In this document: positions 1 through 54,317 of the stretch, piece by piece
Layout: each line of letters begins with the position of its first letter
Position numbering within the stretch: position 1 is the first letter of the stretch
Assembly (NCBI GenBank): GCA_040954595.2
Contig: CM082587.2
Location: forward strand, 11,959,262-12,023,261
DNA from: Balanoglossus misakiensis
Lineage: Eukaryota > Animalia > Hemichordata
DNA: 64,000 bases
Reading direction: 5' to 3'
Translations under genes and position numbers: made by a program
The notes under the pieces: model-generated
Told to the model about the DNA's origin: nothing
What the model saw: the letters and a program-made list of their open reading frames with translations, nothing else
Databases searched by the model: none

Positions 1-3000
1 CTAGAATCTTACGTGCCATTGGAGAGCTCCATTGACTGGTCATTCATACTGTTTTCATTCATTCATTGCGGCATCAATATATTTTATCTATTCTAGCCAA
101 AGAGCTTGGCACCTGTTGAAATGAACTCATCTGCTGTGGGCCAGTTTATTGGTGGCAGTTGAGCTGAGGAGAGCACCTTCCTTCCCGGGACGCCACCAAG
201 TAAAGTTCCACGCCGCCCACCACAGATGCCAGCATTCATTCATGCGAGTGAGTGTAATTGCAAATTTGCCTATTCTAGATTCTTACGTGCCATTGGAGAG
301 CTCCATTGACTGGTCATTCATACTGTTTTCATTCATTCATTGCGGCATCAATATATTTTATCTATTCTAGCCAAAGAGCTTGGCACCTGTTGAAATGAAC
401 TCATCTGCTGTGGGCCAGTTTATTGGTGGCAGTTGAGCTGAGGAGAGCACCTTCCTTCCCGGCACGCCACCAAGTAAAGTTCCACGCCGCCCACCACAGA
501 TGCCAGCATTCATTCATGCGAGTGAGTGTAATTGCAAATTTGCCTATTCTAGATCTGTAATGGAAATGGAGAAAGTACCTTATATTTTCTGTAAAATAGA
601 CATTTAATTGGCAAGCCGTCCTGCATCAATTATTAATTGTGTACATGCACTAAAGCGCCCTCACTGCTGGGTGTGTTGTATGGTCTTTAACCCTGTTTCA
701 AATTAGAGTACTTTCTGCAATTTCAAGACAGATCTTACGTGCCATTGGAGAGCTCCATTGACTGGTCATTCATACTGTTTTCATTCATTCATTGCGGCAT
801 CAATATATTTTATCTATTCTAGCCAAAGAGCTTGGCACCTGTTGAAATGAACTCATCTGCTGTGGGCCAGTTTATTGGTGGCAGTTGAGCTGAGGAGAGC
901 ACCTTCCTTCCCGGCACGCCACCAAGTAAAGTTCCACGCCGCCCACCACAGATGCCAGCATTCATTCATGCGAGTGAGTGTAATTGCAAATTTGCCTATT
1001 CTAGAATTACGTGCCATTGGAGAGCTCCATTGACTGGTCATTCATACTGTTTTCATTCATTCATTGCGGCATCAATATATTTTATCTATTCTAGCCAAAG
1101 AGCTTGGCACCTGTTGAAATGAACTCATCTGCTGTGGGCCAGTTTATTGGTGGCAGTTGAGCTGAGGAGAGCACCTTCCTTCCCGGCACGCCACCAAGTA
1201 AAGTTCCACGCCGCCCACCACAGATGCCAGCATTCATTCATGCGAGTGAGTGTAATTGCAAATTTGCCTATTCTAGATCTGTAATGGAAATGGAGAAAGT
1301 ACCTTATATTTTCTGTAAAATAGACATTTAATTGGCAAGCCGTCCTGCATCAATTATGAATTGTGTACATGCACTAAAGCGCCCTCACTGCTGGGTGTGT
1401 TGTATGGTCTTTAACCCTGTTTCAAATTAGAGTACTTTCTGCAATTTCAAGACAGATCTTACGTGCCATTGGAGAGCTCCATTGACTGGTCATTCATACT
1501 GTTTTCATTCATTCATTGCGGCATCAATATATTTTATCTATTCTAGCCAAAGAGCTTGGCACCTGTTGAAATGAACTCATCTGCTGTGGGCCAGTTTATT
1601 GGTGGCAGTTGAGCTGAGGAGAGCACCTTCCTTCCCGGCACGCCACCAAGTAAAGTTCCACGCCGCCCACCACAGATGCCAGCATTCATTCATGCGAGTG
1701 AGTGTAATTGCAAATTTGCCTATTCTAGATCTGTAATGGAAATGGAGAAAGTACCTTATATTTTCTGTAAAATAGACATTTAATTGGCAAGCCGTCCTGC
1801 ATCAATTATGAATTGTGTACATGCACTAAAGCGCCCTCACTGCTGGGTGTGTTGTATGGTCTTTAACCCTGTTTCAAATTAGAGTACTTTCTGCAATTTC
1901 AAGACAGATCTTACGTGCCATTGGAGAGCTCCATTGACTGGTCATTCATACTGTTTTCATTCATTCATTGCGGCATCAATATATTTTATCTATTCTAGCC
2001 AAAGAGCTTGGCACCTGTTGAAATGAACTCATCTGCTGTGGGCCAGTTTATTGGTGGCAGTTGAGCTGAGGAGAGCACCTTCCTTCCCGGCACGCCACCA
2101 AGTAAAGTTCCACGCCGCCCACCACAGATGCCAGCATTCATTCATGCGAGTGAGTGTAATTGCAAATTTGCCTATTCTAGATCTGTAATGGAAATGGAGA
2201 AAGTACCTTATATTTTCTGTAAAATAGACATTTAATTGGCAAGCCGTCCTGCATCAATTATGAATTGTGTACATGCACTAAAGCGCCCTCACTGCTGGGT
2301 GTGTTGTATGGTCTTTAACCCTGTTTCAAATTAGAGTACTTTCTGCAATTTCAAGACAGATCTTACGTGCCATTGGAGAGCTCCATTGACTGGTCATTCA
2401 TACTGTTTTCATTCATTCATTGCGGCATCAATATATTTTATCTATTCTAGCCAAAGAGCTTGGCACCTGTTGAAATGAACTCATCTGCTGTGGGCCAGTT
2501 TATTGGTGGCAGTTGAGCTGAGAAGAGCACCTTCCTTCCCGGCACGCCACCAAGTAAAGTTCCACGCCGCCCACCACAGATGCCAGCATTCATTCATGCG
2601 AGTGAGTGTAATTGCAAATTTGCCTATTCTAGAATCTTACGTGCCATTGGAGAGCTCCATTGACTGGTCATTCATACTGTTTTCATTCATTCATTGCGGC
2701 ATCAATATATTTTATCTATTCTAGCCAAAGAGCTTGGCACCTGTTGAAATGAACTCATCTGCTGTGGGCCAGTTTATTGGTGGCAGTTGAGCTGAGGAGA
2801 GCACCTTCCTTCCCGGGACGCCACCAAGTAAAGTTCCACGCCGCCCACCACAGATGCCAGCATTCATTCATGCGAGTGAGTGTAATTGCAAATTTGCCTA
2901 TTCTAGATTCTTACGTGCCATTGGAGAGCTCCATTGACTGGTCATTCATACTGTTTTCATTCATTCATTGCGGCATCAATATATTTTATCTATTCTAGCC

Positions 3001-6000
3001 AAAGAGCTTGGCACCTGTTGAAATGAACTCATCTGCTGTGGGCCAGTTTATTGGTGGCAGTTGAGCTGAGGAGAGCACCTTCCTTCCCGGCACGCCACCA
3101 AGTAAAGTTCCACGCCGCCCACCACAGATGCCAGCATTCATTCATGCGAGTGAGTGTAATTGCAAATTTGCCTATTCTAGATCTGTAATGGAAATGGAGA
3201 AAGTACCTTATATTTTCTGTAAAATAGACATTTAATTGGCAAGCCGTCCTGCATCAATTATGAATTGTGTACATGCACTAAAGCGCCCTCACTGCTGGGT
3301 GTGTTGTATGGTCTTTAACCCTGTTTCAAATTAGAGTACTTTCTGCAATTTCAAGACAGATCTTACGTGCCATTGGAGAGCTCCATTGACTGGTCATTCA
3401 TACTGTTTTCATTCATTCATTGCGGCATCAATATATTTTATCTATTCTAGCCAAAGAGCTTGGCACCTGTTGAAATGAACTCATCTGCTGTGGGCCAGTT
3501 TATTGGTGGCAGTTGAGCTGAGGAGAGCACCTTCCTTCCCGGCACGCCACCAAGTAAAGTTCCACGCCGCCCACCACAGATGCCAGCATTCATTCATGCG
3601 AGTGAGTGTAATTGCAAATTTGCCTATTCTAGATCTGTAATGGAAATGGAGAAAGTACCTTATATTTTCTGTAAAATAGACATTTAATTGGCAAGCCGTC
3701 CTGCATCAATTATGAATTGTGTACATGCACTAAAGCGCCCTCACTGCTGGGTGTGTTGTATGGTCTTTAACCCTGTTTCAAATTAGAGTACTTTCTGCAA
3801 TTTCAAGACAGATCTTACGTGCCATTGGAGAGCTCCATTGACTGGTCATTCATACTGTTTTCATTCATTCATTGCGGCATCAATATATTTTATGTATTCT
3901 AGCCAAAGAGCTTGGCACCTGTTGAAATGAACTCATCTGCTGTGGGCCAGTTTATTGGTGGCAGTTGAGCTGAGGAGAGCACCTTCCTTCCCGGCACGCC
4001 ACCAAGTAAAGTTCCACGCCGCCCACCACAGATGCCAGCATTCATTCATGCGAGTGAGTGTAATTGCAAATTTGCCTATTCTAGATCTGTAATGGAAATG
4101 GAGAAAGTACCTTATATTTTCTGTAAAATAGACATTTAATTGGCAAGCCGTCCTGCATCAATTATTAATTGTGTACATGCACTAAAGCGCCCTCACTGCT
4201 GGGTGTGTTGTATGGTCTTTAACCCTGTTTCAAATTAGAGTACTTTCTGCAATTTCAAGACAGATCTTACGTGCCATTGGAGAGCTCCATTGACTGGTCA
4301 TTCATACTGTTTTCATTCATTCATTGCGGCATCAATATATTTTATCTATTCTAGCCAAAGAGCTTGGCACCTGTTGAAATGAACTCATCTGCTGTGGGCC
4401 AGTTTATTGGTGGCAGTTGAGTTGAGGAGAGCACCTTCCTTCCCGGCACGCCACCAAGTAAAGTTCCACGCCGCCCACCACAGATGCCAGCATTCATTCA
4501 TGCGAGTGAGTGTAATTGCAAATTTGCCTATTCTAGAATTCTTACGTGCCATTGGAGAGCTCCATTGACTGGTCATTCATACTGTTTTCATTCATTCATT
4601 GCGGCATCAATATATTTTATGTATTCTAGCCAAAGAGCTTGGCACCTGTTGAAATGAACTCATCTGCTGTGGGCCAGTTTATTGGTGGCAGTTGAGCTGA
4701 GGAGAGCACCTTCCTTCCCGGCACGCCACCAAGTAAAGTTCCACGCCGCCCACCACAGATGCCAGCATTCATTCATGCGAGTGAGTGTAATTGCAAATTT
4801 GCCTATTCTAGATCTGTAATGGAAATGGAGAAAGTACCTTATATTTTCTGTAAAATAGACATTTAATTGGCAAGCCGTCCTGCATCAATTATGAATTGTG
4901 TACATGCACTAAAGCGCCCTCACTGCTGGGTGTGTTGTATGGTCTTTAACCCTGTTTCAAATTAGAGTACTTTCTGCAATTTCAAGACAGATCTTACGTG
5001 CCATTGGAGAGCTCCATTGACTGGTCATTCATACTGTTTTCATTCATTCATTGTGGCATCAATATATTTTATCTATTCTAGCCAAAGAGCTTGGCACCTG
5101 TTGAAATGAACTCATCTGCTGTGGGCCAGTTTATTGGTGGCAGTTGAGCTGAGGAGAGCACCTTCCTTCCCGGCACGCCACCAAGTAAAGTTCCACGCCG
5201 CCCACCACAGATGCCAGCATTCATTCATGCGAGTGAGTGTAATTGCAAATTTGCCTATTCTAGATCTGTAATGGAAATGGAGAAAGTACCTTATATTTTC
5301 TGTAAAATAGACATTTAATTGGCAAGCCGTCCTGCATCAATTATTAATTGTGTACATGCACTAAAGCGCCCTCACTGCTGGGTGTGTTGTATGGTCTTTA
5401 ACCCTGTTTCAAATTAGAGTACTTTCTGCAATTTCAAGACAGATCTTACGTGCCATTGGAGAGCTCCATTGACTGGTCATTCATACTGTTTTCATTCATT
5501 CATTGCGGCATCAATATATTTTATCTATTCTAGCCAAAGAGCTTGGCACCTGTTGAAATGAACTCATCTGCTGTGGGCCAGTTTATTGGTGGCAGTTGAG
5601 CTGAGAAGAGCACCTTCCTTCCCGGCACGCCACCAAGTAAAGTTCCACGCCGCCCACCACAGATGCCAGCATTCATTCATGCGAGTGAGTGTAATTGCAA
5701 ATTTGCCTATTCTAGATCTGTAATGGAAATGGAGAAAGTACCTTATATTTTCTGTAAAATAGACATTTAATTGGCAAGCCGTCCTGCATCAATTATGAAT
5801 TGTGTACATGCACTAAAGCGCCCTCACTGCTGGGTGTGTTGTATGGTCTTTAACCCTGTTTCAAATTAGAGTACTTTCTGCAATTTCAAGACAGATCTTA
5901 CGTGCCATTGGAGAGCTCCATTGACTGGTCATTCATACTGTTTTCATTCATTCATTGCGGCATCAATATATTTTATCTATTCTAGCCAAAGAGCTTGGCA

Positions 6001-9000
6001 CCTGTTGAAATGAACTCATCTGCTGTGGGCCAGTTTATTGGTGGCAGTTGAGCTGAGGAGAGCACCTTCCTTCCCGGCACGCCACCAAGTAAAGTTCCAC
6101 GCCGCCCACCACAGATGCCAGCATTCATTCATGCGAGTGAGTGTAATTGCAAATTTGCCTATTCTAGATCTGTAATGGAAATGGAGAAAGTACCTTATAT
6201 TTTCTGTAAAATAGACATTTAATTGGCAAGCCGTCCTGCATCAATTATGAATTGTGTACATGCACTAAAGCGCCCTCACTGCTGGGTGTGTTGTATGGTC
6301 TTTAACCCTGTTTCAAATTAGAGTACTTTCTGCAATTTCAAGACAGATCTTACGTGCCATTGGAGAGCTCCATTGACTGGTCATTCATACTGTTTTCATT
6401 CATTCATTGCGGCATCAATATATTTTATCTATTCTAGCCAAAGAGCTTGGCACCTGTTGAAATGAACTCATCTGCTGTGGGCCAGTTTATTGGTGGCAGT
6501 TGAGCTGAGGAGAGCACCTTCCTTCCCGGCACGCCACCAAGTAAAGTTCCACGCCGCCCACCACAGATGCCAGCATTCATTCATGCGAGTGAGTGTAATT
6601 GCAAATTTGCCTATTCTAGATCTGTAATGGAAATGGAGAAAGTACCTTATATTTTCTGTAAAATAGACATTTAATTGGCAAGCCGTCCTGCATCAATTAT
6701 GAATTGTGTACATGCACTAAAGCGCCCTCACTGCTGGGTGTGTTGTATGGTCTTTAACCCTGTTTCAAATTAGAGTACTTTCTGCAATTTCAAGACAGAT
6801 CTTACGTGCCATTGGAGAGCTCCATTGACTGGTCATTCATACTGTTTTCATTCATTCATTGCGGCATCAATATATTTTATGTATTCTAGCCAAAGAGCTT
6901 GGCACCTGTTGAAATGAACTCATCTGCTGTGGGCCAGTTTATTGGTGGCAGTTGAGCTGAGGAGAGCACCTTCCTTCCCGGCACGCCACCAAGTAAAGTT
7001 CCACGCCGCCCACCACAGATGCCAGCATTCATTCATGCGAGTGAGTGTAATTGCAAATTTGCCTATTCTAGATCTGTAATGGAAATGGAGAAAGTACCTT
7101 ATATTTTCTGTAAAATAGACATTTAATTGGCAAGCCGTCCTGCATCAATTATTAATTGTGTACATGCACTAAAGCGCCCTCACTGCTGGGTGTGTTGTAT
7201 GGTCTTTAACCCTGTTTCAAATTAGAGTACTTTCTGCAATTTCAAGACAGATCTTACGTGCCATTGGAGAGCTCCATTGACTGGTCATTCATACTGTTTT
7301 CATTCATTCATTGCGGCATCAATATATTTTATCTATTCTAGCCAAAGAGCTTGGCACCTGTTGAAATGAACTCATCTGCTGTGGGCCAGTTTATTGGTGG
7401 CAGTTGAGCTGAGGAGAGCACCTTCCTTCCCGGCACGCCACCAAGTAAAGTTCCACGCCGCCCACCACAGATGCCAGCATTCATTCATGCGAGTGAGTGT
7501 AATTGCAAATTTGCCTATTCTAGAATTACGTGCCATTGGAGAGCTCCATTGACTGGTCATTCATACTGTTTTCATTCATTCATTGCGGCATCAATATATT
7601 TTATCTATTCTAGCCAAAGAGCTTGGCACCTGTTGAAATGAACTCATCTGCTGTGGGCCAGTTTATTGGTGGCAGTTGAGCTGAGGAGAGCACCTTCCTT
7701 CCCGGCACGCCACCAAGTAAAGTTCCACGCCGCCCACCACAGATGCCAGCATTCATTCATGCGAGTGAGTGTAATTGCAAATTTGCCTATTCTAGATCTG
7801 TAATGGAAATGGAGAAAGTACCTTATATTTTCTGTAAAATAGACATTTAATTGGCAAGCCGTCCTGCATCAATTATGAATTGTGTACATGCACTAAAGCG
7901 CCCTCACTGCTGGGTGTGTTGTATGGTCTTTAACCCTGTTTCAAATTAGAGTACTTTCTGCAATTTCAAGACAGATCTTACGTGCCATTGGAGAGCTCCA
8001 TTGACTGGTCATTCATACTGTTTTCATTCATTCATTGCGGCATCAATATATTTTATCTATTCTAGCCAAAGAGCTTGGCACCTGTTGAAATGAACTCATC
8101 TGCTGTGGGCCAGTTTATTGGTGGCAGTTGAGCTGAGGAGAGCACCTTCCTTCCCGGCACGCCACCAAGTAAAGTTCCACGCCGCCCACCACAGATGCCA
8201 GCATTCATTCATGCGAGTGAGTGTAATTGCAAATTTGCCTATTCTAGAATCTTACGTGCCATTGGAGAGCTCCATTGACTGGTCATTCATACTGTTTTCA
8301 TTCATTCATTGCGGCATCAATATATTTTATCTATTCTAGCCAAAGAGCTTGGCACCTGTTGAAATGAACTCATCTGCTGTGGGCCAGTTTATTGGTGGCA
8401 GTTGAGCTGAGGAGAGCACCTTCCTTCCCGGCACGCCACCAAGTAAAGTTCCACGCCGCCCACCACAGATGCCAGCATTCATTCATGCGAGTGAGTGTAA
8501 TTGCAAATTTGCCTATTCTAGATCTGTAATGGAAATGGAGAAAGTACCTTATATTTTCTGTAAAATAGACATTTAATTGGCAAGCCGTCCTGCATCAATT
8601 ATTAATTGTGTACATGCACTAAAGCGCCCTCACTGCTGGGTGTGTTGTATGGTCTTTAACCCTGTTTCAAATTAGAGTACTTTCTGCAATTTCAAGACAG
8701 ATCTTACGTGCCATTGGAGAGCTCCATTGACTGGTCATTCATACTGTTTTCATTCATTCATTGCGGCATCAATATATTTTATCTATTCTAGCCAAAGAGC
8801 TTGGCACCTGTTGAAATGAACTCATCTGCTGTGGGCCAGTTTATTGGTGGCAGTTGAGCTGAGAAGAGCACCTTCCTTCCCGGCACGCCACCAAGTAAAG
8901 TTCCACGCCGCCCACCACAGATGCCAGCATTCATTCATGCGAGTGAGTGTAATTGCAAATTTGCCTATTCTAGATCTGTAATGGAAATGGAGAAAGTACC

Positions 9001-12000
9001 TTATATTTTCTGTAAAATAGACATTTAATTGGCAAGCCGTCCTGCATCAATTATGAATTGTGTACATGCACTAAAGCGCCCTCACTGCTGGGTGTGTTGT
9101 ATGGTCTTTAACCCTGTTTCAAATTAGAGTACTTTCTGCAATTTCAAGACAGATCTTACGTGCCATTGGAGAGCTCCATTGACTGGTCATTCATACTGTT
9201 TTCATTCATTCATTGCGGCATCAATATATTTTATCTATTCTAGCCAAAGAGCTTGGCACCTGTTGAAATGAACTCATCTGCTGTGGGCCAGTTTATTGGT
9301 GGCAGTTGAGCTGAGGAGAGCACCTTCCTTCCCGGCACGCCACCAAGTAAAGTTCCACGCCGCCCACCACAGATGCCAGCATTCATTCATGCGAGTGAGT
9401 GTAATTGCAAATTTGCCTATTCTAGATCTGTAATGGAAATGGAGAAAGTACCTTATATTTTCTGTAAAATAGACATTTAATTGGCAAGCCGTCCTGCATC
9501 AATTATGAATTGTGTACATGCACTAAAGCGCCCTCACTGCTGGGTGTGTTGTATGGTCTTTAACCCTGTTTCAAATTAGAGTACTTTCTGCAATTTCAAG
9601 ACAGATCTTACGTGCCATTGGAGAGCTCCATTGACTGGTCATTCATACTGTTTTCATTCATTCATTGCGGCATCAATATATTTTATCTATTCTAGCCAAA
9701 GAGCTTGGCACCTGTTGAAATGAACTCATCTGCTGTGGGCCAGTTTATTGGTGGCAGTTGAGCTGAGGAGAGCACCTTCCTTCCCGGCACGCCACCAAGT
9801 AAAGTTCCACGCCGCCCACCACAGATGCCAGCATTCATTCATGCGAGTGAGTGTAATTGCAAATTTGCCTATTCTAGATCTGTAATGGAAATGGAGAAAG
9901 TACCTTATATTTTCTGTAAAATAGACATTTAATTGGCAAGCCGTCCTGCATCAATTATGAATTGTGTACATGCACTAAAGCGCCCTCACTGCTGGGTGTG
10001 TTGTATGGTCTTTAACCCTGTTTCAAATTAGAGTACTTTCTGCAATTTCAAGACAGATCTTACGTGCCATTGGAGAGCTCCATTGACTGGTCATTCATAC
10101 TGTTTTCATTCATTCATTGCGGCATCAATATATTTTATCTATTCTAGCCAAAGAGCTTGGCACCTGTTGAAATGAACTCATCTGCTGTGGGCCAGTTTAT
10201 TGGTGGCAGTTGAGCTGAGAAGAGCACCTTCCTTCCCGGCACGCCACCAAGTAAAGTTCCACGCCGCCCACCACAGATGCCAGCATTCATTCATGCGAGT
10301 GAGTGTAATTGCAAATTTGCCTATTCTAGAATCTTACGTGCCATTGGAGAGCTCCATTGACTGGTCATTCATACTGTTTTCATTCATTCATTGCGGCATC
10401 AATATATTTTATCTATTCTAGCCAAAGAGCTTGGCACCTGTTGAAATGAACTCATCTGCTGTGGGCCAGTTTATTGGTGGCAGTTGAGCTGAGGAGAGCA
10501 CCTTCCTTCCCGGGACGCCACCAAGTAAAGTTCCACGCCGCCCACCACAGATGCCAGCATTCATTCATGCGAGTGAGTGTAATTGCAAATTTGCCTATTC
10601 TAGATTCTTACGTGCCATTGGAGAGCTCCATTGACTGGTCATTCATACTGTTTTCATTCATTCATTGCGGCATCAATATATTTTATCTATTCTAGCCAAA
10701 GAGCTTGGCACCTGTTGAAATGAACTCATCTGCTGTGGGCCAGTTTATTGGTGGCAGTTGAGCTGAGGAGAGCACCTTCCTTCCCGGCACGCCACCAAGT
10801 AAAGTTCCACGCCGCCCACCACAGATGCCAGCATTCATTCATGCGAGTGAGTGTAATTGCAAATTTGCCTATTCTAGATCTGTAATGGAAATGGAGAAAG
10901 TACCTTATATTTTCTGTAAAATAGACATTTAATTGGCAAGCCGTCCTGCATCAATTATTAATTGTGTACATGCACTAAAGCGCCCTCACTGCTGGGTGTG
11001 TTGTATGGTCTTTAACCCTGTTTCAAATTAGAGTACTTTCTGCAATTTCAAGACAGATCTTACGTGCCATTGGAGAGCTCCATTGACTGGTCATTCATAC
11101 TGTTTTCATTCATTCATTGCGGCATCAATATATTTTATCTATTCTAGCCAAAGAGCTTGGCACCTGTTGAAATGAACTCATCTGCTGTGGGCCAGTTTAT
11201 TGGTGGCAGTTGAGCTGAGGAGAGCACCTTCCTTCCCGGCACGCCACCAAGTAAAGTTCCACGCCGCCCACCACAGATGCCAGCATTCATTCATGCGAGT
11301 GAGTGTAATTGCAAATTTGCCTATTCTAGATCTGTAATGGAAATGGAGAAAGTACCTTATATTTTCTGTAAAATAGACATTTAATTGGCAAGCCGTCCTG
11401 CATCAATTATGAATTGTGTACATGCACTAAAGCGCCCTCACTGCTGGGTGTGTTGTATGGTCTTTAACCCTGTTTCAAATTAGAGTACTTTCTGCAATTT
11501 CAAGACAGATCTTACGTGCCATTGGAGAGCTCCATTGACTGGTCATTCATACTGTTTTCATTCATTCATTGCGGCATCAATATATTTTATGTATTCTAGC
11601 CAAAGAGCTTGGCACCTGTTGAAATGAACTCATCTGCTGTGGGCCAGTTTATTGGTGGCAGTTGAGCTGAGGAGAGCACCTTCCTTCCCGGCACGCCACC
11701 AAGTAAAGTTCCACGCCGCCCACCACAGATGCCAGCATTCATTCATGCGAGTGAGTGTAATTGCAAATTTGCCTATTCTAGATCTGTAATGGAAATGGAG
11801 AAAGTACCTTATATTTTCTGTAAAATAGACATTTAATTGGCAAGCCGTCCTGCATCAATTATTAATTGTGTACATGCACTAAAGCGCCCTCACTGCTGGG
11901 TGTGTTGTATGGTCTTTAACCCTGTTTCAAATTAGAGTACTTTCTGCAATTTCAAGACAGATCTTACGTGCCATTGGAGAGCTCCATTGACTGGTCATTC

Positions 12001-13343
12001 ATACTGTTTTCATTCATTCATTGCGGCATCAATATATTTTATCTATTCTAGCCAAAGAGCTTGGCACCTGTTGAAATGAACTCATCTGCTGTGGGCCAGT
12101 TTATTGGTGGCAGTTGAGCTGAGGAGAGCACCTTCCTTCCCGGCACGCCACCAAGTAAAGTTCCACGCCGCCCACCACAGATGCCAGCATTCATTCATGC
12201 GAGTGAGTGTAATTGCAAATTTGCCTATTCTAGAATTACGTGCCATTGGAGAGCTCCATTGACTGGTCATTCATACTGTTTTCATTCATTCATTGCGGCA
12301 TCAATATATTTTATCTATTCTAGCCAAAGAGCTTGGCACCTGTTGAAATGAACTCATCTGCTGTGGGCCAGTTTATTGGTGGCAGTTGAGCTGAGGAGAG
12401 CACCTTCCTTCCCGGCACGCCACCAAGTAAAGTTCCACGCCGCCCACCACAGATGCCAGCATTCATTCATGCGAGTGAGTGTAATTGCAAATTTGCCTAT
12501 TCTAGATCTGTAATGGAAATGGAGAAAGTACCTTATATTTTCTGTAAAATAGACATTTAATTGGCAAGCCGTCCTGCATCAATTATGAATTGTGTACATG
12601 CACTAAAGCGCCCTCACTGCTGGGTGTGTTGTATGGTCTTTAACCCTGTTTCAAATTAGAGTACTTTCTGCAATTTCAAGACAGATCTTACGTGCCATTG
12701 GAGAGCTCCATTGACTGGTCATTCATACTGTTTTCATTCATTCATTGCGGCATCAATATATTTTATCTATTCTAGCCAAAGAGCTTGGCACCTGTTGAAA
12801 TGAACTCATCTGCTGTGGGCCAGTTTATTGGTGGCAGTTGAGCTGAGGAGAGCACCTTCCTTCCCGGCACGCCACCAAGTAAAGTTCCACGCCGCCCACC
12901 ACAGATGCCAGCATTCATTCATGCGAGTGAGTGTAATTGCAAATTTGCCTATTCTAGATCTGTAATGGAAATGGAGAAAGTACCTTATATTTTCTGTAAA
13001 ATAGACATTTAATTGGCAAGCCGTCCTGCATCAATTATGAATTGTGTACATGCACTAAAGCGCCCTCACTGCTGGGTGTGTTGTATGGTCTTTAACCCTG
13101 TTTCAAATTAGAGTACTTTCTGCAATTTCAAGACAGATCTTACGTGCCATTGGAGAGCTCCATTGACTGGTCATTCATACTGTTTTCATTCATTCATTGC
13201 GGCATCAATATATTTTATCTATTCTAGCCAAAGAGCTTGGCACCTGTTGAAATGAACTCATCTGCTGTGGGCCAGTTTATTGGTGGCAGTTGAGCTGAGG
13301 AGAGCACCTTCCTTCCCGGCACGCCACCAAGTAAAGTTCCACG
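1..13343. repeat. Satellite array 1: tandem 452-bp monomers (A + MITE-like B) mixed with 272-275-bp B-less monomers; open at the window's left edge
   Basis: Near-identical tandem units with a 452-bp period (e.g. identically phased ORF positions differ by multiples of 452 plus 272-275); only a few recurring SNPs. Confidence 0.98.
555..731. mobile_element. Representative 177-bp MITE-like element B (roughly 70 copies in the window, one per 452-bp monomer)
   Basis: Left end CTGTAATGGAAATGGAGAAAGTAC (555-578) matches the reverse complement of the right end (708-731, CTGTCTTGAAATTGCAGAAAGTAC) at 19/24 positions; AGATCT spans both junctions, consistent with an AT (or GATC/AGATCT) target duplication; B is absent from some monomers. 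Confidence 0.85.
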
Positions 13344-15133
13344 TGCATTCCTGGCCCTGGTTTTATTTATGTTTACAGACAATATTGCATTTTTGTACAA
13401 GTATTTTAATCAACTATAAATTTTGAATGTGTCATTTACCTGAACCGGTCATGTTGACCAGAATGATACATTTCTGCCTTCACTCACCCTATAAATATGT
13501 GATTGAGACATAGGTCATTTGCATAAGCTAACATACCAGAAAGTAAGCATATCTGTTGTTTTCCCTGTGTCACTGCCATCAAAGTAAAAATTAGACGTTG
13601 TGTAGAGCAAACTCCAATTTTTTGTTCTCAATAAACATGGATGAATTACATAGAATGTGTTTGTTGTTTACAGTCTTTAAATGACACATTAGATTATGCA
13701 CTTTACAAAACGTTTCTGAGAAACAAGTGACTAACTAGTTTCTTTCCACTGTGGCCAACGTGGTTCACTGTTTGTGTCAGAATCTCTCTGTTTTGCAAGG
13801 ATTTTGAAATCATAGTGGTGACATGCATAGTGAAAATCAGCTACTTTCAAATGTCCGTCATGTTCATGCTGTAATTGAATTTTCAAAGCTGGGCTGGCGT
13901 GTTTTTTCTTATTTACATAAGTATCACACTTTATACATGTATCTTCATGGGGTTTTTTGAGTCCCGTATTTAGGTCCTCTCTCACAATTTTACGAAATAT
14001 CGTATAACTGACAGTTGTTCTTCCCAGAAGAGATTGGTTGGTTATGAACTCTCGGTGTAACTGCGATATACTGTGGTCCGGCGCCAGGTACGGTTTAAAT
14101 CGAGGATTCCTGCAGTAGTGAGATTCTACAATTCTGTGCCTGCGTACGTGTTCAGTGATATCAGTCAGCAAATTTGGATTGAGTTTCCGACGATGCCCTT
14201 TGTGTCGGCCCCTTGCATCTGGCATCAGACCAGTAAAGTTCCATGTGCATTCCTGGCCCTGGTTTTATTTATGTTTACAGACAATATTGCATTTTTGTAC
14301 AAGTATTTTAATCAACTATAAATTTTGAATGTGTCATTTACCTGAACCGGTCATGTTGACCAGAATGATACATTTCTGCCTTCACTCACCCTATAAATAT
14401 GTGATTGAGACATAGGTCATTTGCATAAGCTAACATACCAGAAAGTAAGCATATCTGTTGTTTTCCCTGTGTCACTGCCATCAAAGTAAAAATTAGACGT
14501 TGTGTAGAGCAAACTCCAATTTTTTGTTCTCAATAAACATGGATGAATTACATAGAATGTGTTTGTTGTTTACAGTCTTTAAATGACACATTAGATTATG
14601 CACTTTACAAAACGTTTCTGAGAAACAAGTGACTAACTAGTTTCTTTCCACTGTGGCCAACGTGGTTCACTGTTTGTGTCAGAATCTCTCTGTTTTGCAA
14701 GGATTTTGAAATCATAGTGGTGACATGCATAGTGAAAATCAGCTACTTTCAAATGTCCGTCATGTTCATGCTGTAATTGAATTTTCAAAGCTGGGCTGGC
14801 GTGTTTTTTCTTATTTACATAAGTATCACACTTTATACATGTATCTTCATGGGGTTTTCTGAGTCCCGTATTTAGGTCCTCTCTCACAATTTTACGAAAT
14901 ATCGTATAACTGACAGTTGTTCTTCCCAGAAGAGATTGGTTGGTTATGAACTCTCGGTGTAACTGCGATATACTGTGGTCCGGCGCCAGGTACGGTTTAA
15001 ATCGAGGATTCCTGCAGTAGTGAGATTCTACAATTCTGTGCCTGCGTACGTGTTCAGTGATATCAGTCAGCAAATTTGGATTGAGTTTCCGACGATGCCC
15101 TTTGTGTCGGCCCCTTGCATCTGGCATCAGACC
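13330..15133. repeat. 902-bp tandem duplication (13330-14231 / 14232-15133) of the 3' part of the minus-strand gene and its downstream region
   Basis: ORF ends 13731 and 14633 differ by 902; AGT microhomology at the junction; two substitutions noticed between the copies. Confidence 0.95.
13731..14225 (-). pseudogene. 5'-truncated duplicate (164 aa) of the transposase N-terminal-half gene
   Basis: Identical to the last 164 aa of 14633-15589 except one R>K change; created by the 902-bp duplication. Confidence 0.85.
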
Positions 15134-15589
15134 AGTTGAACAGTGCATCATTTTGCTTAGAACGGTTCTAGTCCGCCTCTCACTAATGCCAAATAATTTC
15201 AGGAATGCATTTTTGCAGACAGTAACCGTTTCACCGCCTTCATTCACCAGGTGATAACGAACCGATTTCTTGTGTGACTTCATCTGTATATCCATCAGTT
15301 TGTAGAGCATCAAGTTCTGTTCATTATACACGCGACCATCAAAATATTTTCTCGTGGTGCCTAAAACATGCGTACTCCCAAGCTTCCGCAGACAATTCCC
15401 TTGAACGCAGGCGCATTCCAAGGAAAGACTGTCAATATCTGGAAAAGGGCGATTTTTCCTTGGTTTTTGTCTCGGACACGTCTTTTTAGAATTCCTACGT
15501 GGCTTGTTGGCTCGAGCTGACAGTTCGGTTCTGCGTTGCTGCCACACAGGAATGGGTTCCCACGCATAAGCAACTCCCCGGCAGGCCAT
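14633..15589 (-). CDS. Transposase N-terminal half (Cys/His-rich putative DNA-binding region, Sola1-like), 318 aa from the first ATG
   Basis: Motifs CxC(4)C, VCKNAFLKLFGIS, DARGRH, ESHYCR, PYL, YxIF, PHEDTCIKCD and H..H...A occur in the order I recognise from N-terminal halves of Sola1-type transposases; intronless; minus-strand AATAAA at 14264-14269. Confidence 0.8.
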   Translation of the reverse strand: MACRGVAYAWEPIPVWQQRRTELSARANKPRRNSKKTCPRQKPRKNRPFPDIDSLSLECACVQGNCLRKLGSTHVLGTTRKYFDGRVYNEQNLMLYKLMDIQMKSHKKSVRYHLVNEGGETVTVCKNAFLKLFGISERRTRTVLSKMMHCSTGLMPDARGRHKGHRRKLNPNLLTDITEHVRRHRIVESHYCRNPRFKPYLAPDHSISQLHREFITNQSLLGRTTVSYTIFRKIVREDLNTGLRKPHEDTCIKCDTYVNKKKHASPALKIQLQHEHDGHLKVADFHYACHHYDFKILAKQRDSDTNSEPRWPQWKETS

Positions 15590-15760
15590 GGTCACAGCTG
15601 AAGTATTTGTTCAAGTACTGACTGACTAAACGCGGCATGGAACAAACGAACGAACGAACGAACGACTTCACGTTCGGAAAAAAAATCGTTGCGAGCTGTT
15701 GGGTGCCTCTATAGTTGTCGGCAACCGTTCTTTTTTATTGCTAAACAATGCTGTCAGAGC
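15590..15760. promoter_or_regulatory. Putative bidirectional promoter between the two transposase halves, containing a short (GAAC)n tract
   Basis: 171 bp between divergent ATGs; GAAC repeats at ~15640-15666; promoter function inferred from geometry only. Confidence 0.55.
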
Positions 15761-16774
15761 ATGGAAGGTGTGGTGGAAAACGAACAGAGGTTTTGTACGA
15801 CCAACGATTGGATGGTGCTACATATGGACTTCCACAAGTCATTGCCGGTTCCTAAACTCAGCTCTGAAGACTTTTACTTTAAATCGAAATTGCAAATGAA
15901 GCTCCTTGGAATTTACAACGGGACAACGGAAAAGATGCATTGTTATGTATGGACAGAGCTCGATAGCAGAAAGTCTCCCGATGAAGTTATTACCTGTCTA
16001 AATCACTTTTTTTATAACTCGGGTGTGACCAGCAGACATGCAGTTATTTACAGCGACAACTGCCGTGCCGAATTCAAGTGTGGGAAGTTAATGTTTTACT
16101 ATGACTATCTGTTACGAAAGGGCGTGTTTCGACGAATTGACTATAAAACTCTTGTGGCTGGACACACGTACTCCACCTGTGACCGAGTTTTTGCGTCCAT
16201 TGAAAGGCATGCAAGTCGTTTCCAGAGTATAGAGACACCTCACGATTGGACATCTGTGATTCGAGGATCTTCTCTGAATGGGAACATTGGAGTTACGGAG
16301 ATGACTCACAGAGACTTTTTCAATTATTCTGATTTCCTGAAAAATGAGTACGTTGTGCGTTATGCAGATACAAACAATGTAACTTTTTACTACCAAGCCA
16401 TGCACTATTTTAATTTTGGAGAAGGAGAAAGGCTTGATACCGACGGCAACCTCAGAACATTTAGTCATGCAGATAAAGTTTGGGTGAGAACATCTCTAGA
16501 TCCAAGCGAGACCCCGATTGTAGTCGACTTTAGAAAGAAGAAGCAGAACCGGCGTTTACAAGATTGTACGCTGAACAAACTTTATCAGGAACGTCGACCA
16601 CTGGCGAGCAAAGTTTGGCGGGATCTTCAGAGTTTAGCCAAAAATTACCTGTCTCCGGAGGCAATAGAATTTTATAGGAATCTACCGCTTCAGGAGAGTA
16701 GTGGCACCTCTGCAGACCCGTACGCCTTTCATGATGATGACGACGACGATGATGATGATATGGGCGGTGGTTGA
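15761..16774 (+). CDS. Transposase catalytic half (RNase H-fold DDD core, Sola1-like), 337 aa from the first ATG, with acidic tail
   Basis: MDFHKSLPVPKL, FYFKSKL, CYVWTE, EVITCL, YSDNC and GHTYSTCDRVFASIE supply three candidate catalytic Asp; ATTAAA at 16875 followed by a GT-rich tract. Confidence 0.85.
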   Translation: MEGVVENEQRFCTTNDWMVLHMDFHKSLPVPKLSSEDFYFKSKLQMKLLGIYNGTTEKMHCYVWTELDSRKSPDEVITCLNHFFYNSGVTSRHAVIYSDNCRAEFKCGKLMFYYDYLLRKGVFRRIDYKTLVAGHTYSTCDRVFASIERHASRFQSIETPHDWTSVIRGSSLNGNIGVTEMTHRDFFNYSDFLKNEYVVRYADTNNVTFYYQAMHYFNFGEGERLDTDGNLRTFSHADKVWVRTSLDPSETPIVVDFRKKKQNRRLQDCTLNKLYQERRPLASKVWRDLQSLAKNYLSPEAIEFYRNLPLQESSGTSADPYAFHDDDDDDDDDMGGG

Positions 16775-17166: not shown

Positions 17167-17257
17167 CGACCCTGGGCTATTGTTCGGAATGCGTCATCGA
17201 CGAGAGAGTGACTGATAATTCTTCTACCTCGAGTCAACCATTCTGTATATACTGAAC

Positions 17258-18584
17258 ATGGCTAGCTGGCGCAGGAAGAGACAAGGCAATGTGCGGTCTG
17301 TAATCAACGAACGGCACCGCTCAGTTCAGTGTCCCTTTCTTCAAAAGTGGATCGGTGAGCAATTGGTATTTTCAGGTCGTTCAGAGGATGAAGTCCAGTC
17401 CAGTACTGTATTTGAGAGCTACAAATGTTGGGTTGAAAACTATTCGTCGGCGGACAATCAAGTAATGATTATGGTTACTAAAGCTCGATTTTTCAAGGTG
17501 AGAATGATCGCATTTTTCTTCCCCCCCCCCCTCCCTCCCCCAAGGGACTCGTTTTCTGTCTCTTTTAAACCTGTAACTTAACGAAAAGGAAGTTTTTCAC
17601 ATATCTCTTTGTTGACACTATAGCAATTTGGAGCGCGGATGCTTCAAGAGAATAGCGTTACCAAATCAAAGTCGGCCGGGGTTAATATTTATAGAGGTGT
17701 TCGTCTGAAAGCTGGTTCGCGAAGAATCTCAACGGGGAAACCTGAGCACAGTGTACTTCAGACCAGGGCAAGGGCATTTCTTGATGACGCCAGCGTGACC
17801 GTTCCGATCGAGGTAAGAATGGTGTTTTGTTTGGACTAGGACAATAGAACGTTGCAATGAGTGTGTCAATGGGTGTCCAAGTGCAAACGTGGTCGGCTTC
17901 TGTCCACAAATGCCATTAATTTTAGGCAGGATTTATAAAATTGTCAATGAAGAATACAAAAATGAAAAACAATAGTTAATAGCAAACGGGTAGGATTGCA
18001 AGGGCTTGTAAAACGGTACACACTGTACCAGGAAGTTTGCAACACTAATGAAGAATGTATATGATATATTTAGGTGAGAACTGTTCGCGATCGCCGGGAC
18101 GCAGGACGGTGCGCGTTTTCGACGAGGGATCTTCAAGCCTGGAACGTCGTCTGCGAATACCGGGGCACGGTTATTAGCGTTGAAGAAGCTAGTCGGCGTG
18201 ATGAACTTTACAGGGCAGAGGGGAAACGACCACGCATGTTTCATCTCTACATTGGAAAGAGACACGTTGTGTGAGTGTATCACTTAGTCGAATATATGGT
18301 CATATATTGCAAAGCATCTGTCGAAATAGAAAACGTAATATTGTCTATATTTTCCTCATTAACGCAGCATTGACGGATACGATGTCCCAGCCGGTGAAGA
18401 AAATTTAGCGGGCCTAATAAATCACAGTCAGCAGAACGCCAACTTGGTACCGGTTCGGATCGGAGAGCGCCTGGTTTTCTTTGCAACCAGGAATCTTTGT
18501 CAGGGAGTAGAGCTTTTGTATGATTACGGTGACGGGGGTGAAGAGGATTTCTTCAGTGGTTCTCAAACTTTTCCTGAAAATTAA
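17258..18584 (+). CDS. Winged-helix + SET-domain lysine methyltransferase (PR-Set7/SETD8-like), 280 aa; exons 17258-17497, 17624-17812, 18074-18270, 18368-18584
   Basis: Three GT-AG introns (phases 0, 0, 2) splice to one open frame with GRCAF, VCEYRG, VIDG, AGLINHS and ELLYDYGD motifs and no post-SET cysteines; the N-terminus resembles RFX/D5-type winged helix. Confidence 0.9.
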
Positions 18585-19492: not shown

Positions 19493-19858
19493 ATGGCGGC
19501 CAAGCTCAACTGCATATCAGATAATGCCAAGGAGCGTTTGAGAGGCATCCTCGCCAGAAGGAGTCGCGTTTCCGGTGACTGTGTGCTCTGGACGGGTGCA
19601 GCTTGTCGAAACGGCTATGGCTCTATTACGTTCAGAGATGAGAACACTCTAACCGCCTATGTCCATCACATTGCACTCCTAATTAACGGAGTGCAATTGG
19701 TGGGCAGGCGGTTAGAGTGTTCTCATCTTTGCAACGAAAAGCTATGCATCCGCCCAGAGCACATTGTCCAGGAAACGCGACTCCTAAACATTTCACGAAA
19801 GACGTGCTTTAAATCCCCAAAAGGGGAGTGTCACCACGATCCCAGGTGCCTAAGGTGA
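19493..19858 (+). CDS. His-Me finger endonuclease, His-Cys box / I-PpoI-like zinc-binding loop type, 121 aa (may be spliced at 19855)
   Basis: CVLWTG, GYG, YVHH, SHLCNEKLCIRPEH, E(4)N(2)R(2)C and CHHDPRC motifs; ATG at 19493; AG|GTGAGT overlaps the stop codon. Confidence 0.88.
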   Translation: MAAKLNCISDNAKERLRGILARRSRVSGDCVLWTGAACRNGYGSITFRDENTLTAYVHHIALLINGVQLVGRRLECSHLCNEKLCIRPEHIVQETRLLNISRKTCFKSPKGECHHDPRCLR

Positions 19859-20840: not shown

Positions 20841-21175
20841 TGTCAACACAGATGCCAGCATTCAAAAGGGGAGTGCCACCTGCTAAAATCAACTCATCTG
20901 CTGTTGGCCCATTTTACCTGTGGCAACTGTTCAGAGGAGACAACGTTTATTCCGTGCAAGCCAACACGCAATGTTGGGGTCTACCTGTCAACACAGATGC
21001 AAGCATTCATGTGAGTGAGTATCAGGACTGACCTTGTTTTGCTGAATAATTCATAATGCCTATTTTAGAATTCTTAGAGGCATTTGGAGTTCATTGCCTG
21101 GTCAACCAAACTACACCCCTTAACAGCTGAAACAAAATGCGTATTGTGTTCATTCATTCATTGCTTCAATATATA
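20841..21175 (+). repeat. Diverged, B-less homologue of satellite unit A inside the cassette
   Basis: Colinear shared blocks CACCTG, AACTCATCTGCTGT, GAGGAGA, CACAGATGC.AGCATTCAT, GAGTGAGT, TGCCTATT.TAGA, CATTG.CTGGTCA and TTCATTCATTCATTGC. Confidence 0.85.
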
Positions 21176-21489: not shown

Positions 21490-24400
21490 ATATTTTCTGT
21501 AAAATAGACATTTAATTGGCAAGCCGTCCTGCATCAATTATTAATTGTGTACATGCACTAAAGCGCCCTCACTGCTGGGTGTGTTGTATGGTCTTTAACC
21601 CTGTTTCAAATTAGAGTACTTTCTGCAATTTCAAGACAGATCTTACGTGCCATTGGAGAGCTCCATTGACTGGTCATTCATACTGTTTTCATTCATTCAT
21701 TGCGGCATCAATATATTTTATGTATTCTAGCCAAAGAGCTTGGCACCTGTTGAAATGAACTCATCTGCTGTGGGCCAGTTTATTGGTGGCAGTTGAGCTG
21801 AGGAGAGCACCTTCCTTCCCGGCACGCCACCAAGTAAAGTTCCACGCCGCCCACCACAGATGCCAGCATTCATTCATGCGAGTGAGTGTAATTGCAAATT
21901 TGCCTATTCTAGATCTGTAATGGAAATGGAGAAAGTACCTTATATTTTCTGTAAAATAGACATTTAATTGGCAAGCCGTCCTGCATCAATTATTAATTGT
22001 GTACATGCACTAAAGCGCCCTCACTGCTGGGTGTGTTGTATGGTCTTTAACCCTGTTTCAAATTAGAGTACTTTCTGCAATTTCAAGACAGATCTTACGT
22101 GCCATTGGAGAGCTCCATTGACTGGTCATTCATACTGTTTTCATTCATTCATTGCGGCATCAATATATTTTATCTATTCTAGCCAAAGAGCTTGGCACCT
22201 GTTGAAATGAACTCATCTGCTGTGGGCCAGTTTATTGGTGGCAGTTGAGCTGAGGAGAGCACCTTCCTTCCCGGCACGCCACCAAGTAAAGTTCCACGCC
22301 GCCCACCACAGATGCCAGCATTCATTCATGCGAGTGAGTGTAATTGCAAATTTGCCTATTCTAGAATTACGTGCCATTGGAGAGCTCCATTGACTGGTCA
22401 TTCATACTGTTTTCATTCATTCATTGCGGCATCAATATATTTTATCTATTCTAGCCAAAGAGCTTGGCACCTGTTGAAATGAACTCATCTGCTGTGGGCC
22501 AGTTTATTGGTGGCAGTTGAGCTGAGGAGAGCACCTTCCTTCCCGGCACGCCACCAAGTAAAGTTCCACGCCGCCCACCACAGATGCCAGCATTCATTCA
22601 TGCGAGTGAGTGTAATTGCAAATTTGCCTATTCTAGATCTGTAATGGAAATGGAGAAAGTACCTTATATTTTCTGTAAAATAGACATTTAATTGGCAAGC
22701 CGTCCTGCATCAATTATGAATTGTGTACATGCACTAAAGCGCCCTCACTGCTGGGTGTGTTGTATGGTCTTTAACCCTGTTTCAAATTAGAGTACTTTCT
22801 GCAATTTCAAGACAGATCTTACGTGCCATTGGAGAGCTCCATTGACTGGTCATTCATACTGTTTTCATTCATTCATTGCGGCATCAATATATTTTATCTA
22901 TTCTAGCCAAAGAGCTTGGCACCTGTTGAAATGAACTCATCTGCTGTGGGCCAGTTTATTGGTGGCAGTTGAGCTGAGGAGAGCACCTTCCTTCCCGGCA
23001 CGCCACCAAGTAAAGTTCCACGCCGCCCACCACAGATGCCAGCATTCATTCATGCGAGTGAGTGTAATTGCAAATTTGCCTATTCTAGAATCTTACGTGC
23101 CATTGGAGAGCTCCATTGACTGGTCATTCATACTGTTTTCATTCATTCATTGCGGCATCAATATATTTTATCTATTCTAGCCAAAGAGCTTGGCACCTGT
23201 TGAAATGAACTCATCTGCTGTGGGCCAGTTTATTGGTGGCAGTTGAGCTGAGGAGAGCACCTTCCTTCCCGGCACGCCACCAAGTAAAGTTCCACGCCGC
23301 CCACCACAGATGCCAGCATTCATTCATGCGAGTGAGTGTAATTGCAAATTTGCCTATTCTAGATCTGTAATGGAAATGGAGAAAGTACCTTATATTTTCT
23401 GTAAAATAGACATTTAATTGGCAAGCCGTCCTGCATCAATTATTAATTGTGTACATGCACTAAAGCGCCCTCACTGCTGGGTGTGTTGTATGGTCTTTAA
23501 CCCTGTTTCAAATTAGAGTACTTTCTGCAATTTCAAGACAGATCTTACGTGCCATTGGAGAGCTCCATTGACTGGTCATTCATACTGTTTTCATTCATTC
23601 ATTGCGGCATCAATATATTTTATCTATTCTAGCCAAAGAGCTTGGCACCTGTTGAAATGAACTCATCTGCTGTGGGCCAGTTTATTGGTGGCAGTTGAGC
23701 TGAGAAGAGCACCTTCCTTCCCGGCACGCCACCAAGTAAAGTTCCACGCCGCCCACCACAGATGCCAGCATTCATTCATGCGAGTGAGTGTAATTGCAAA
23801 TTTGCCTATTCTAGATCTGTAATGGAAATGGAGAAAGTACCTTATATTTTCTGTAAAATAGACATTTAATTGGCAAGCCGTCCTGCATCAATTATGAATT
23901 GTGTACATGCACTAAAGCGCCCTCACTGCTGGGTGTGTTGTATGGTCTTTAACCCTGTTTCAAATTAGAGTACTTTCTGCAATTTCAAGACAGATCTTAC
24001 GTGCCATTGGAGAGCTCCATTGACTGGTCATTCATACTGTTTTCATTCATTCATTGCGGCATCAATATATTTTATCTATTCTAGCCAAAGAGCTTGGCAC
24101 CTGTTGAAATGAACTCATCTGCTGTGGGCCAGTTTATTGGTGGCAGTTGAGCTGAGGAGAGCACCTTCCTTCCCGGCACGCCACCAAGTAAAGTTCCACG
24201 CCGCCCACCACAGATGCCAGCATTCATTCATGCGAGTGAGTGTAATTGCAAATTTGCCTATTCTAGATCTGTAATGGAAATGGAGAAAGTACCTTATATT
24301 TTCTGTAAAATAGACATTTAATTGGCAAGCCGTCCTGCATCAATTATGAATTGTGTACATGCACTAAAGCGCCCTCACTGCTGGGTGTGTTGTATGGTCT

Positions 24401-33510: not shown

Positions 33511-33681
33511 GGTCACAGCTGAAGTATTTGTTCAAGTACTGACTGACTAAACGCGGCATGGAACAAACGAACGAACGAACGAACGACTTCACGTTCGGAA
33601 AAAAAATCGTTGCGAGCTGTTGGGTGCCTCTATAGTTGTCGGCAACCGTTCTTTTTTATTGCTAAACAATGCTGTCAGAGC

Positions 33682-54146: not shown

Positions 54147-54317
54147 GGTCACAGCTGAAGTATTTGTTCAAGTACTGACTGACTAAACGCGGCATGGAAC
54201 AAACGAACGAACGAACGAACGACTTCACGTTCGGAAAAAAAATCGTTGCGAGCTGTTGGGTGCCTCTATAGTTGTCGGCAACCGTTCTTTTTTATTGCTA
54301 AACAATGCTGTCAGAGC

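Follow-up and report, generated by a model that had tools for sequence, protein, structure and literature searches.

The window, which is the whole stretch of 64,000 nucleotides of Balanoglossus misakiensis DNA that was analyzed, probably carries a cut-and-paste DNA transposon with a transposase divided between 2 intact genes on opposite strands, with the 2 proteins likely reassembling into one enzyme; we give this reading a probability of roughly 70%. The transposase front half, ORF A (14633..15589, minus strand, 318 aa), is predicted to contain 2 helix-turn-helix/winged-helix domains, a CxxC motif, and a long last helix. The RNase H-like catalytic half, ORF B (15761..16774, plus strand, 337 aa), carries Asp23, Asp99, and Asp141 and belongs to Pfam DUF7869. 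By sequence comparison, A and B are complementary halves of single-chain DUF7869 DDD transposases. Because the split layout is common to many distant relatives, A and B probably cooperate as the two parts of one enzyme. An initial annotation had described 2 intact ORFs lying head-to-head 171 bp apart, and this arrangement was confirmed; the spacer between the start codons (15590..15760) has an (AACG)n microsatellite inside and is a putative shared promoter.

The A/B pair was present 3 times in the window. It is carried by a tandem unit of 18-21 kb, and the coding sequence of the 3 copies is identical; the second pair lies at 32554..34695 (gene block 31265-39410) and the third at 53190..55331 (gene block 51901-60046). 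A satellite block at 6..13343 (plus strand) is composed of 452-bp units, each made of a spacer and a miniature element, and of 272-275-bp units that represent footprint-like junctions, and other satellite blocks occupy 21490-31264, 39411-51900, and 60047-64000. A relative of the satellite spacer, 71% identical, lies within the gene block (20874..21020, plus strand). The 3' portion of A, together with its tail, is directly duplicated at 13326..14234 (minus strand), where a partial ORF of 164 aa (13731-14225) lies, and read depth over this duplicate was doubled in run X1. The sample represented by runs X1 and X2 had the same tandem structure as the window, and the sole difference in A among those listed for these runs was an amino-acid change. 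Runs X3 and X4 contained just a small share of it, with fragments of the gene block covered at a depth of about 2, and were set aside. Rfam returned no RNA family over 11500-23500, and a role of the satellite as a small-RNA target was without support.

The two halves and their single-chain relatives

B scored 55 bits for Pfam DUF7869 (PF25273), whose curated threshold is 26 (E 1.1e-14). The catalytic motifs named in the initial annotation were all located, with MDFHK at residue 22 (the first Asp being residue 23), SDNC at 98, AEF at 103, and GH....CD at 134. D23, D99, and D141 were nearly invariant across 145 alignment rows, and all 3 are intact in B. The model of B (pLDDT 91.6) has an integrase-like RNase H fold and matched integrase structures, and with only 42 residues between the second and third Asp there is no room for an insertion domain. 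B had no match to Harbinger-type Pfam families, and a word-based search with B among longer proteins, a method insensitive at such distance, found nothing. The replacement of GQN by AEF was seen as described; it had been taken as the mark of a divergent enzyme, but it is largely a clade trait instead. In the first 40 rows of alignment A6, which hold the split clade and its sister group, the third motif position was Phe in 23 of 37 and the second was Glu in 6 of 37; the other 105 rows had Asn at the third position in 98 and Gln at the second in 104.

All of the N-terminal motifs attributed to A were likewise found (VCK at 124, GIS at 134, DARGRH at 157, ESHYCR at 188, and P..DTC..CD at 246). 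The ORF does end after them, but not as soon as had been described, as 63 more residues follow the CxxCD and include a conserved helix. A had no match in Pfam, in a profile search against solved structures, or in a word-based search with A alone, which is similarly insensitive at such distance. Among the 150 best B homologues, however, A matched the N-terminal part of 77 (E<1e-3 in the 150-protein set), so its homology to the front of these proteins is not due to chance. The A-matched part lies upstream of the B-matched part; the motif blocks are thus consecutive in single chains, as the annotation had stated, and both halves come from one family rather than from different superfamilies. Single-chain DUF7869 proteins, putatively Sola1-like by their motifs, are approximately 550-900 aa long. 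In 56 of 62 single chains, 56-65 residues separate CxxCD from the first Asp, compared with about 58 for A plus B.

A single-chain relative aligned to Mos1 with a Z of 10.0 and an rmsd of 9.6 over 279 residues, and the catalytic domain of the single-chain relative aligned with a Z of 9.8 and an rmsd of 3.0 over 161. The cut falls in the loop between helix 315-348 and strand 352-359 of the single-chain relative. It had been placed at the boundary between the DNA-binding and catalytic parts; it is near that boundary but actually one helix inside the catalytic domain, since A retains a helix corresponding in the alignment to the beginning of the Mos1 catalytic domain. The predicted A-B complex scored 0.67 and one control 0.68, both run without use of alignments.

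We consider it unlikely that B is a working nuclease alone or with a host partner and that A is a regulator, such as a repressor or chromatin tether, instead of an obligate subunit. B does fold confidently by itself, and the sister group has a PHD finger N-terminal to the catalytic domain, where the A half would be (P0007, P0021). However, all conserved blocks are kept in A, among them the last helix, the one aligned to the catalytic domain of Mos1, and neither Pfam nor the model revealed a recognizable end-binding domain in B.

The exact complementarity of the halves, with no overlap, and the AG that precedes the B ATG by a few bases in L002, L006, L008, and the window would suit trans-splicing that rejoins A and B RNA into an ordinary single-chain transposase. 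We regard this as very improbable, because each of the 19 B starts shown has an in-frame ATG of its own, lying 7-22 codons ahead of the first Asp, no AG occurs at a common position upstream of B, and A halves reach a stop at a conserved distance with no common donor site seen. Joining by ordinary splicing is excluded by the opposite strands. Each ORF had also been credited with its own ATG and polyA signal. The ATGs are present, but the polyA signals (AATAAA about 365 bp past the A stop; ATTAAA only, about 100 bp past the B stop) are candidates only, given a background of about 1.2 polyA-type hexamers per kb per strand in the block.

Age and spread of the split

The sequences compared indicate that the split is inherited and old, not a recent private break. 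Stand-alone A halves (15 rows) formed one clade and stand-alone B halves (24 rows) formed another, each with an SH-aLRT of 99; 19 further short B-like proteins fell here and there among the single-chain clades. An A half was missing from all 12 of the best B homologues. The longest of 73 stand-alone A-type proteins was 379 aa (lengths searched up to 639 aa), and 46 of the 73 had a terminal YD motif with the stop 10-28 residues later. Both halves were present at 12 of 34 related loci, on opposite strands in every case (12/12), and no A half was visible at the remaining 22, many of which are short. The scan patterns were drawn from split-clade sequences, so single-chain elements fall outside this 34-locus sample. 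A scan of viral contigs found no relative.

Relatives with the same split point were 30-52% identical, had 2 gene orders, and form multi-copy families with decayed copies. In most measurable relative pairs, dN/dS was 0.14-0.22 for A and 0.08-0.28 for B, and most of the remaining pairs were saturated at synonymous sites. Constraint was weaker in 2 measurable pairs, A of L011/L012 (0.8, from 4 differences) and B of L007/L018 (0.45). Selection on the window copy is not measurable because the coding sequence does not differ among its 3 copies. For 6 loci, the A tree and the B tree shared the group (L002,(L004,L006)); L012 and L017 exchanged positions between the trees, with modest support. The initial annotation held that this is not a broken gene, and the split-point clade, the single family of both halves, and purifying selection in relatives agree. 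A recent private inversion of one single-chain gene, suggested by window halves just 171 bp apart and head-to-head, is refuted by the clade-wide split, with the identical split point at 30-52% identity and in both gene orders, and is hardly credible.

The annotation had also proposed expression from a bidirectional promoter. As a family trait this did not hold: the arrangement was tail-to-tail at 8 of the 12 loci with both halves, so such a promoter is not the conserved feature, and one is possible in the window copy.

Accompanying genes, element ends, and footprints

A third gene, encoding a winged-helix domain and a SET domain, is a conserved companion of the split halves. It has 4 exons on the plus strand, with GT-AG introns and a 280-aa open frame: exon 1 (17258..17497) encodes a winged-helix domain like that of poxvirus D5, exon 2 (17624..17812) follows, and exons 3 (18074..18270) and 4 (18368..18584) encode the first and second parts of the SET domain. 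The SET domain was matched by Pfam and has NHS and YDY motifs, both in exon 4. The orthologue at L007 matched SETD8/KMT5A structures with an E of about 1e-8, and a profile search with exon 1 against solved structures gave no match. In runs X1 and X2, 3 of the 5 coding differences listed for this gene changed an amino acid. The gene block also has an ORF for a His-Me finger (HNH) endonuclease (19493..19858, plus strand, 121 aa; PF05551, E 2e-13) that was not found at any of the 34 related loci, and 33 extra frames yielded no further Pfam family above cut-off.

The putative right end (21490..21639, plus strand, 150 bp) matches the final 150 bp of a 177-bp miniature element with 1 mismatch and finishes with ACAG followed by AT. 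This miniature element (12960..13136, plus strand), one of 68 copies, runs from CTGT to ACAG with AT on both sides, and its terminal inverted repeats match at 19 of 24 positions. The window gene block had no adjoining left end; the nearest is that of the miniature element at 12960..13136, and the unit would then span 12960-21639 (8,680 bp). Right ends numbered 71 and left ends 68, with one surplus right end per gene block. A 13.5-kb unit at L011 has CTGT...ACAG ends flanked by AT, with 18/20 identity that none of 300 resampled sequences reached, the pattern for this test having been picked after the repeat was already noticed. Ends were resolved in the window and one other, distant family only (L009-L012, 98-99.7% identical). 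No clean empty site was seen for the window or L011, so the AT duplication is putative, its length included. A 4-bp GATC duplication with TGT...ACA ends suits the window but fails in L011, and a reading of the 452-bp unit as a terminal repeat of KolobokP type was abandoned after the 177-bp unit had been defined.

The miniature element was absent from 28 of 96 satellite junctions. These took 4 forms that are possibly excision-like footprints, of which 2 favor flanking-DNA hairpins under the one-base rule that we assume for hairpin opening. Such a reading fits badly with the fold of B, which is closest to Mos1 and integrases, as mariner-type enzymes make no flank hairpins (PMC5499845).

Three near-identical tandem copies, a missing left end, a partly duplicated A, and the same structure in the sample of runs X1 and X2 could indicate that the cluster is immobile here, being a domesticated or stranded element that persists solely through homogenization of the tandem array. 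This too is quite improbable, as all 3 catalytic Asp are intact, the presence of 4 footprint types within an almost uniform array indicates that excision was repeated, and the relatives are multi-copy families with decayed copies.

For the two-part transposase, we propose that A would bind the CTGT...ACAG ends through its helix-turn-helix domains, that its last helix would dock on B, and that B would cut using Asp23, Asp99, and Asp141. Insertion would duplicate AT, and excision would leave small footprints in the satellite, possibly by way of flanking-DNA hairpins. Histones at the element or close to it may be methylated by the SET protein. In this genome the element seems to have lost its own left end and would use that of the neighboring miniature copy. 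The whole unit has been amplified into a tandem array. A broader proposal is tentative and somewhat doubtful as a whole: an ancient undescribed transposon lineage with an obligate two-subunit transposase arisen by gene fission, AT duplication, flank-hairpin excision without the insertion domain of hAT/RAG, its own DNA-binding histone methyltransferase, and a tendency toward tandem arrays and satellites.

Significance and comparison with known systems

The conserved winged-helix and SET gene, the CTGT...ACAG ends flanked by AT, and the 177-bp miniature element with excision-like footprints are new here. Within the literature reached, no split Sola/DUF7869 transposase was found; Repbase Reports and the founding Sola paper lay outside it, and an earlier description is possible. 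Both pieces were kept until synonymous sites saturated, a natural case of gene fission, and the pair could be a model for the origin of heteromeric recombinases. For a poorly studied family, the window makes experiments possible by supplying the two halves, candidate ends, and a 177-bp substrate that bears natural footprints. A transposase split by nature might be used in gene delivery as a two-input switch, and annotation tools would call each half a broken gene.

The domain order and DDD triad of A plus B are those of the single-chain DUF7869 proteins, putatively Sola1, and terminal inverted repeats are present as in Sola1 (in the miniature element and L011), although the window block lacks an adjoining left end. 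The Sola1 family of PMC3845634 has one 630-aa ORF, ends that begin with GG, and a 4-bp AWWT duplication. The window has 2 ORFs on opposite strands, CTGT ends with a putative 2-bp AT duplication instead of AWWT, and a SET gene. Ectocarpus has a giant Sola1 that carries an accessory epigenetic gene (PMC12477816), and SET genes occur in HarbingerS and some MuDR elements (PMC12730594).

PIF/Harbinger and PHIS elements have 2 genes, for a DDE nuclease and a DNA-binding protein (PMC4482050). The two-gene eukaryotic transposons compared pair a nuclease with an unrelated helper, whereas here one transposase gene is split. The second gene of PIF/Harbinger-type elements is Myb/SANT or YqaJ and here is the cut-off transposase front half; A has no Pfam match, and the flanks are AT only, not a TWA-type duplication. 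The AT flanks, seen without an empty site, could correspond to an AT duplication like that of ISL2EU, which differs in having ends that usually start with GG and a THAP-bearing transposase plus YqaJ, compared to CTGT ends and no such Pfam matches here.

KolobokP (PMC9587614) has a His-Me finger nuclease gene by the transposase, tandem multimers, and a small excisable inverted-repeat unit. The window shares a His-Me finger gene (in the window only), a tandem array, and a small repeat-bounded unit, but its transposase belongs to DUF7869, probably a different family, and in place of terminal direct repeats of 450/660 bp it has a 177-bp unit inside a 452-bp satellite monomer. The flanking-hairpin excision pathway is described for hAT, Transib, RAG1, and MULE (PMC5499845). 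The window footprints fit the opening of flank hairpins as in these systems; unlike them, B lacks an insertion domain and has a fold nearer to Mos1 and integrases. In bacterial IS1, IS3, and some IS630 elements, the DNA-binding and catalytic parts are encoded in separate frames of one strand and are fused by frameshifting, whereas the halves here are on opposite strands.

Gene blocks, satellite and element ends

Along the window, satellite blocks (6-13343, 21490-31264, 39411-51900 and 60047-64000) alternate with three gene blocks of 8.15 kb in a higher-order tandem array; differences between the gene blocks occur at three places, in homopolymer runs. Each gene block contains one ORF A, the front half of a transposase (14633-15589, minus strand, 318 aa), and one ORF B, the catalytic half (15761-16774, plus strand, 337 aa), separated by a gap of 171 bp. 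The motifs listed for the two ORFs in the initial annotation were all present. The same parts were found in contigs of X1 and X2, sequencing runs of one DNA sample, with depth doubled over a duplicated 3' part of A. That this is a stranded array was considered improbable.

Other features of the gene block were noted. The 3' half of A is present a second time, in direct orientation, at 13326-14234; this duplicate begins with approximately 13 bases of satellite spacer, and translation from an internal Met could yield a truncated A of 164 aa. The segment at 20140-20525 has short inverted repeats (20158-20180 and 20494-20516) and many loose ends in run X1, and probably represents the insertion of a further small dispersed element into the gene block. 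A diverged relative of the satellite spacer (71-83%) lies at 20874-21174, where run X1 had more variants as well as about 145 bp duplicated in tandem. At 21490, the run X1 gene block goes on with 24 letters unlike the window, the last of which match the start of the right end; this points to an indel of some 20 bases between run X1 and the window.

The 452-bp satellite monomer consists of a spacer and a 177-bp miniature element that starts with CTGT, ends with ACAG and is flanked by AT on each side; the copy at 12960-13136 is one of 68 (67 others). The gene block passes directly into the final 150 bp of this element, and there are 71 right ends versus 68 left ends; from these sequence features, the 177-bp unit looks like an internal deletion of a full element whose own left end appears to be missing in the window. 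The nearest left end defines an 8,680-bp unit (12960-21639). Similar ends (18/20 complementary, AT-flanked) face outward across a 127-bp spacer in one family of related metagenome loci (L009-L012, approximately 33% protein identity to the window), the assemblies of which are circular permutations of one unit. This end pattern, picked after the repeat had been noticed, was equalled in 0 of 300 resampled sequences. Another related locus contains a 495-bp unit just upstream of its A gene (L002:5676-6170), bounded by CTGTC...GACAG (18/20) and flanked by AT and TT. Double insertions followed by expansion can produce tandem arrays (PMC5932611).

The 177-bp element was present at 68 of 96 satellite junctions. 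The other 28 took four forms (7, 9, 10 and 2 copies), and no clean empty site was found among them. Judged by sequence, these element-free junctions look like excision footprints, and the A/B enzyme may have made them. Locus L012 likewise begins with two spacers and a footprint-like junction between them. All five junction types were compatible with loss or complementation of the base adjoining the element; a plain one-base deletion explains three of the five, but not the other two. Loss or complementation of this base is expected from opened flank hairpins (the Ac/Hermes rule). The flank-hairpin excision pathway is described in PMC5499845. The odds that the junctions come from opened flank hairpins are near even, because the fold of the enzyme is mariner/integrase-like.

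Two halves of one transposase

ORF B matches Pfam DUF7869 and had 3,054 homologous representatives at E<=0.001, the best 150 of which were compared; ORF A matched the N-terminal part in 77 of these 150. Both motifs could be located in 62 single chains (one-ORF DUF7869 proteins with both halves); in 56 of these, CxxCD precedes the first Asp by 56-65 residues. The conserved part of ORF A stops 48 residues past Cys251 and the first strand of ORF B begins 9 residues ahead of Asp23, for a combined spacing of about 58. The ORF B model (pLDDT 91.6) had an integrase-like RNase H fold. D23, D99 and D141 are nearly invariant, and DDD is the likely catalytic triad because E148 varies within the split clade, the relatives with separate halves. 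In the model of P0067, a single-chain relative (pLDDT 87.2), residues 122-510 align with Mos1, the catalytic domain of which aligns from residue 299 onward, and the split point maps between helix 315-348 and strand 352-359. By this modelled alignment and split position, A combines the predicted DNA-binding domains with a single helix from the catalytic domain, likely a docking piece. It is unlikely, though less so than a stranded array, that A is a regulator only.

Inheritance and gene order

The A half was absent from all 12 of the best B homologues. A tree of 129 rows grouped 13 stand-alone B proteins in one clade (support 1.0), and 19 other short proteins, which may be fragments, were dispersed among single chains. 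Maximum-likelihood trees, in which a root on the single-chain side was assumed, placed 15 split A rows in one clade versus 34 single chains, and 24 split B rows in one clade versus 36 single chains and 13 others (SH-aLRT 99 for each). When 2,843 candidates of 46-639 aa were searched with an A profile, 73 proteins matched; none of them was longer than 379 aa or matched the B profile, and 46 of the 73 had the terminal motif with a stop 10-28 residues past it. ORF B relatives had their own ATG 7-22 codons ahead of the first Asp in 19/19 starts shown. We gave trans-splicing as little weight as a stranded array.

The source of one A-type protein, P0203, places it in a bacterial metagenome bin; it is probably host DNA in that bin. 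In the group that is sister to the split clade (P0007, P0021 and P0054), a PHD finger sits immediately N-terminal to the catalytic domain; these proteins lack the A half and may represent another form of split transposase.

Synonymous sites were saturated in most A and B pairs. In measurable pairs, dN/dS was 0.14-0.22 for A, except for window/L017 (0.32) and L011/L012 (0.8, from just four differences). The range for B was 0.08-0.28, except for L007/L018 (0.45). Among 34 metagenome loci collected with scan patterns derived from split-clade sequences, 12 had both halves, on opposite strands in every case; the A half was not found in the remaining 22. The pair was tail-to-tail in eight loci from five families (L002, L004, L006, L009-L012 and L022) and head-to-head in four loci from one family (L015, L017, L025 and L026). 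Taken together, the shared split point, trees, dN/dS and loci indicate at the sequence level that the split is old, that the A/B pair is inherited and constrained, and that a shared promoter is not required. The initial annotation had proposed a two-subunit transposase expressed from a bidirectional promoter rather than a broken gene; the two-subunit reading is likely, but the promoter is unneeded with 8 of 12 loci tail-to-tail. A private break is hardly credible.

Accompanying genes, mechanism and known systems

A third gene (four exons, 17258-18584) encodes a 280-aa protein, and its GT-AG introns show that the host is a eukaryote. The first domain of the protein resembles the poxvirus D5 winged helix (Atlas score 0.97; 27% of the proteins in the top cluster carry that Pfam family) and is followed by a SET domain; the nearest structures to the L007 orthologue were SETD8-type. 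Parts of this gene were found in 12 of the 34 loci, with four blocks in L004, L009-L012 and L014, and intron 1 is at the same position in L004. At L007:1411-2022, the introns that separate exons 2, 3 and 4 of the SET gene have been lost. A His-Me finger (HNH) ORF at 19493-19858 had no counterpart in the 34 loci. Within it, 19559-19785 is a long imperfect inverted repeat with core arms (19633-19658 and 19706-19731) that are 96% complementary, yet the ORF retains its His-Cys motifs.

The halves are complementary, conserved and laid out on opposite strands, and ends in two lineages and footprint-like junctions were observed. With a probability of roughly 0.7, we propose that A and B are made as separate proteins and then reassemble; A would recognize the element ends, B would cut and join, and the SET protein would adjust chromatin. 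Insertion would presumably duplicate AT.

Our literature search, which had Repbase outside its scope, found no report of this transposase split. By protein, the element groups with single-chain DUF7869 elements, which we take to be Sola1. Because that identity is our assumption, and because neither the single ORF nor the AWWT target duplication described for a Sola1 family in PMC3845634 fits the element, we named the element Sola1-like, not Sola1. Like a Harbinger-style transposon, it would work with two genes; unlike in that system, the partner of the catalytic gene is the front half of the same transposase.
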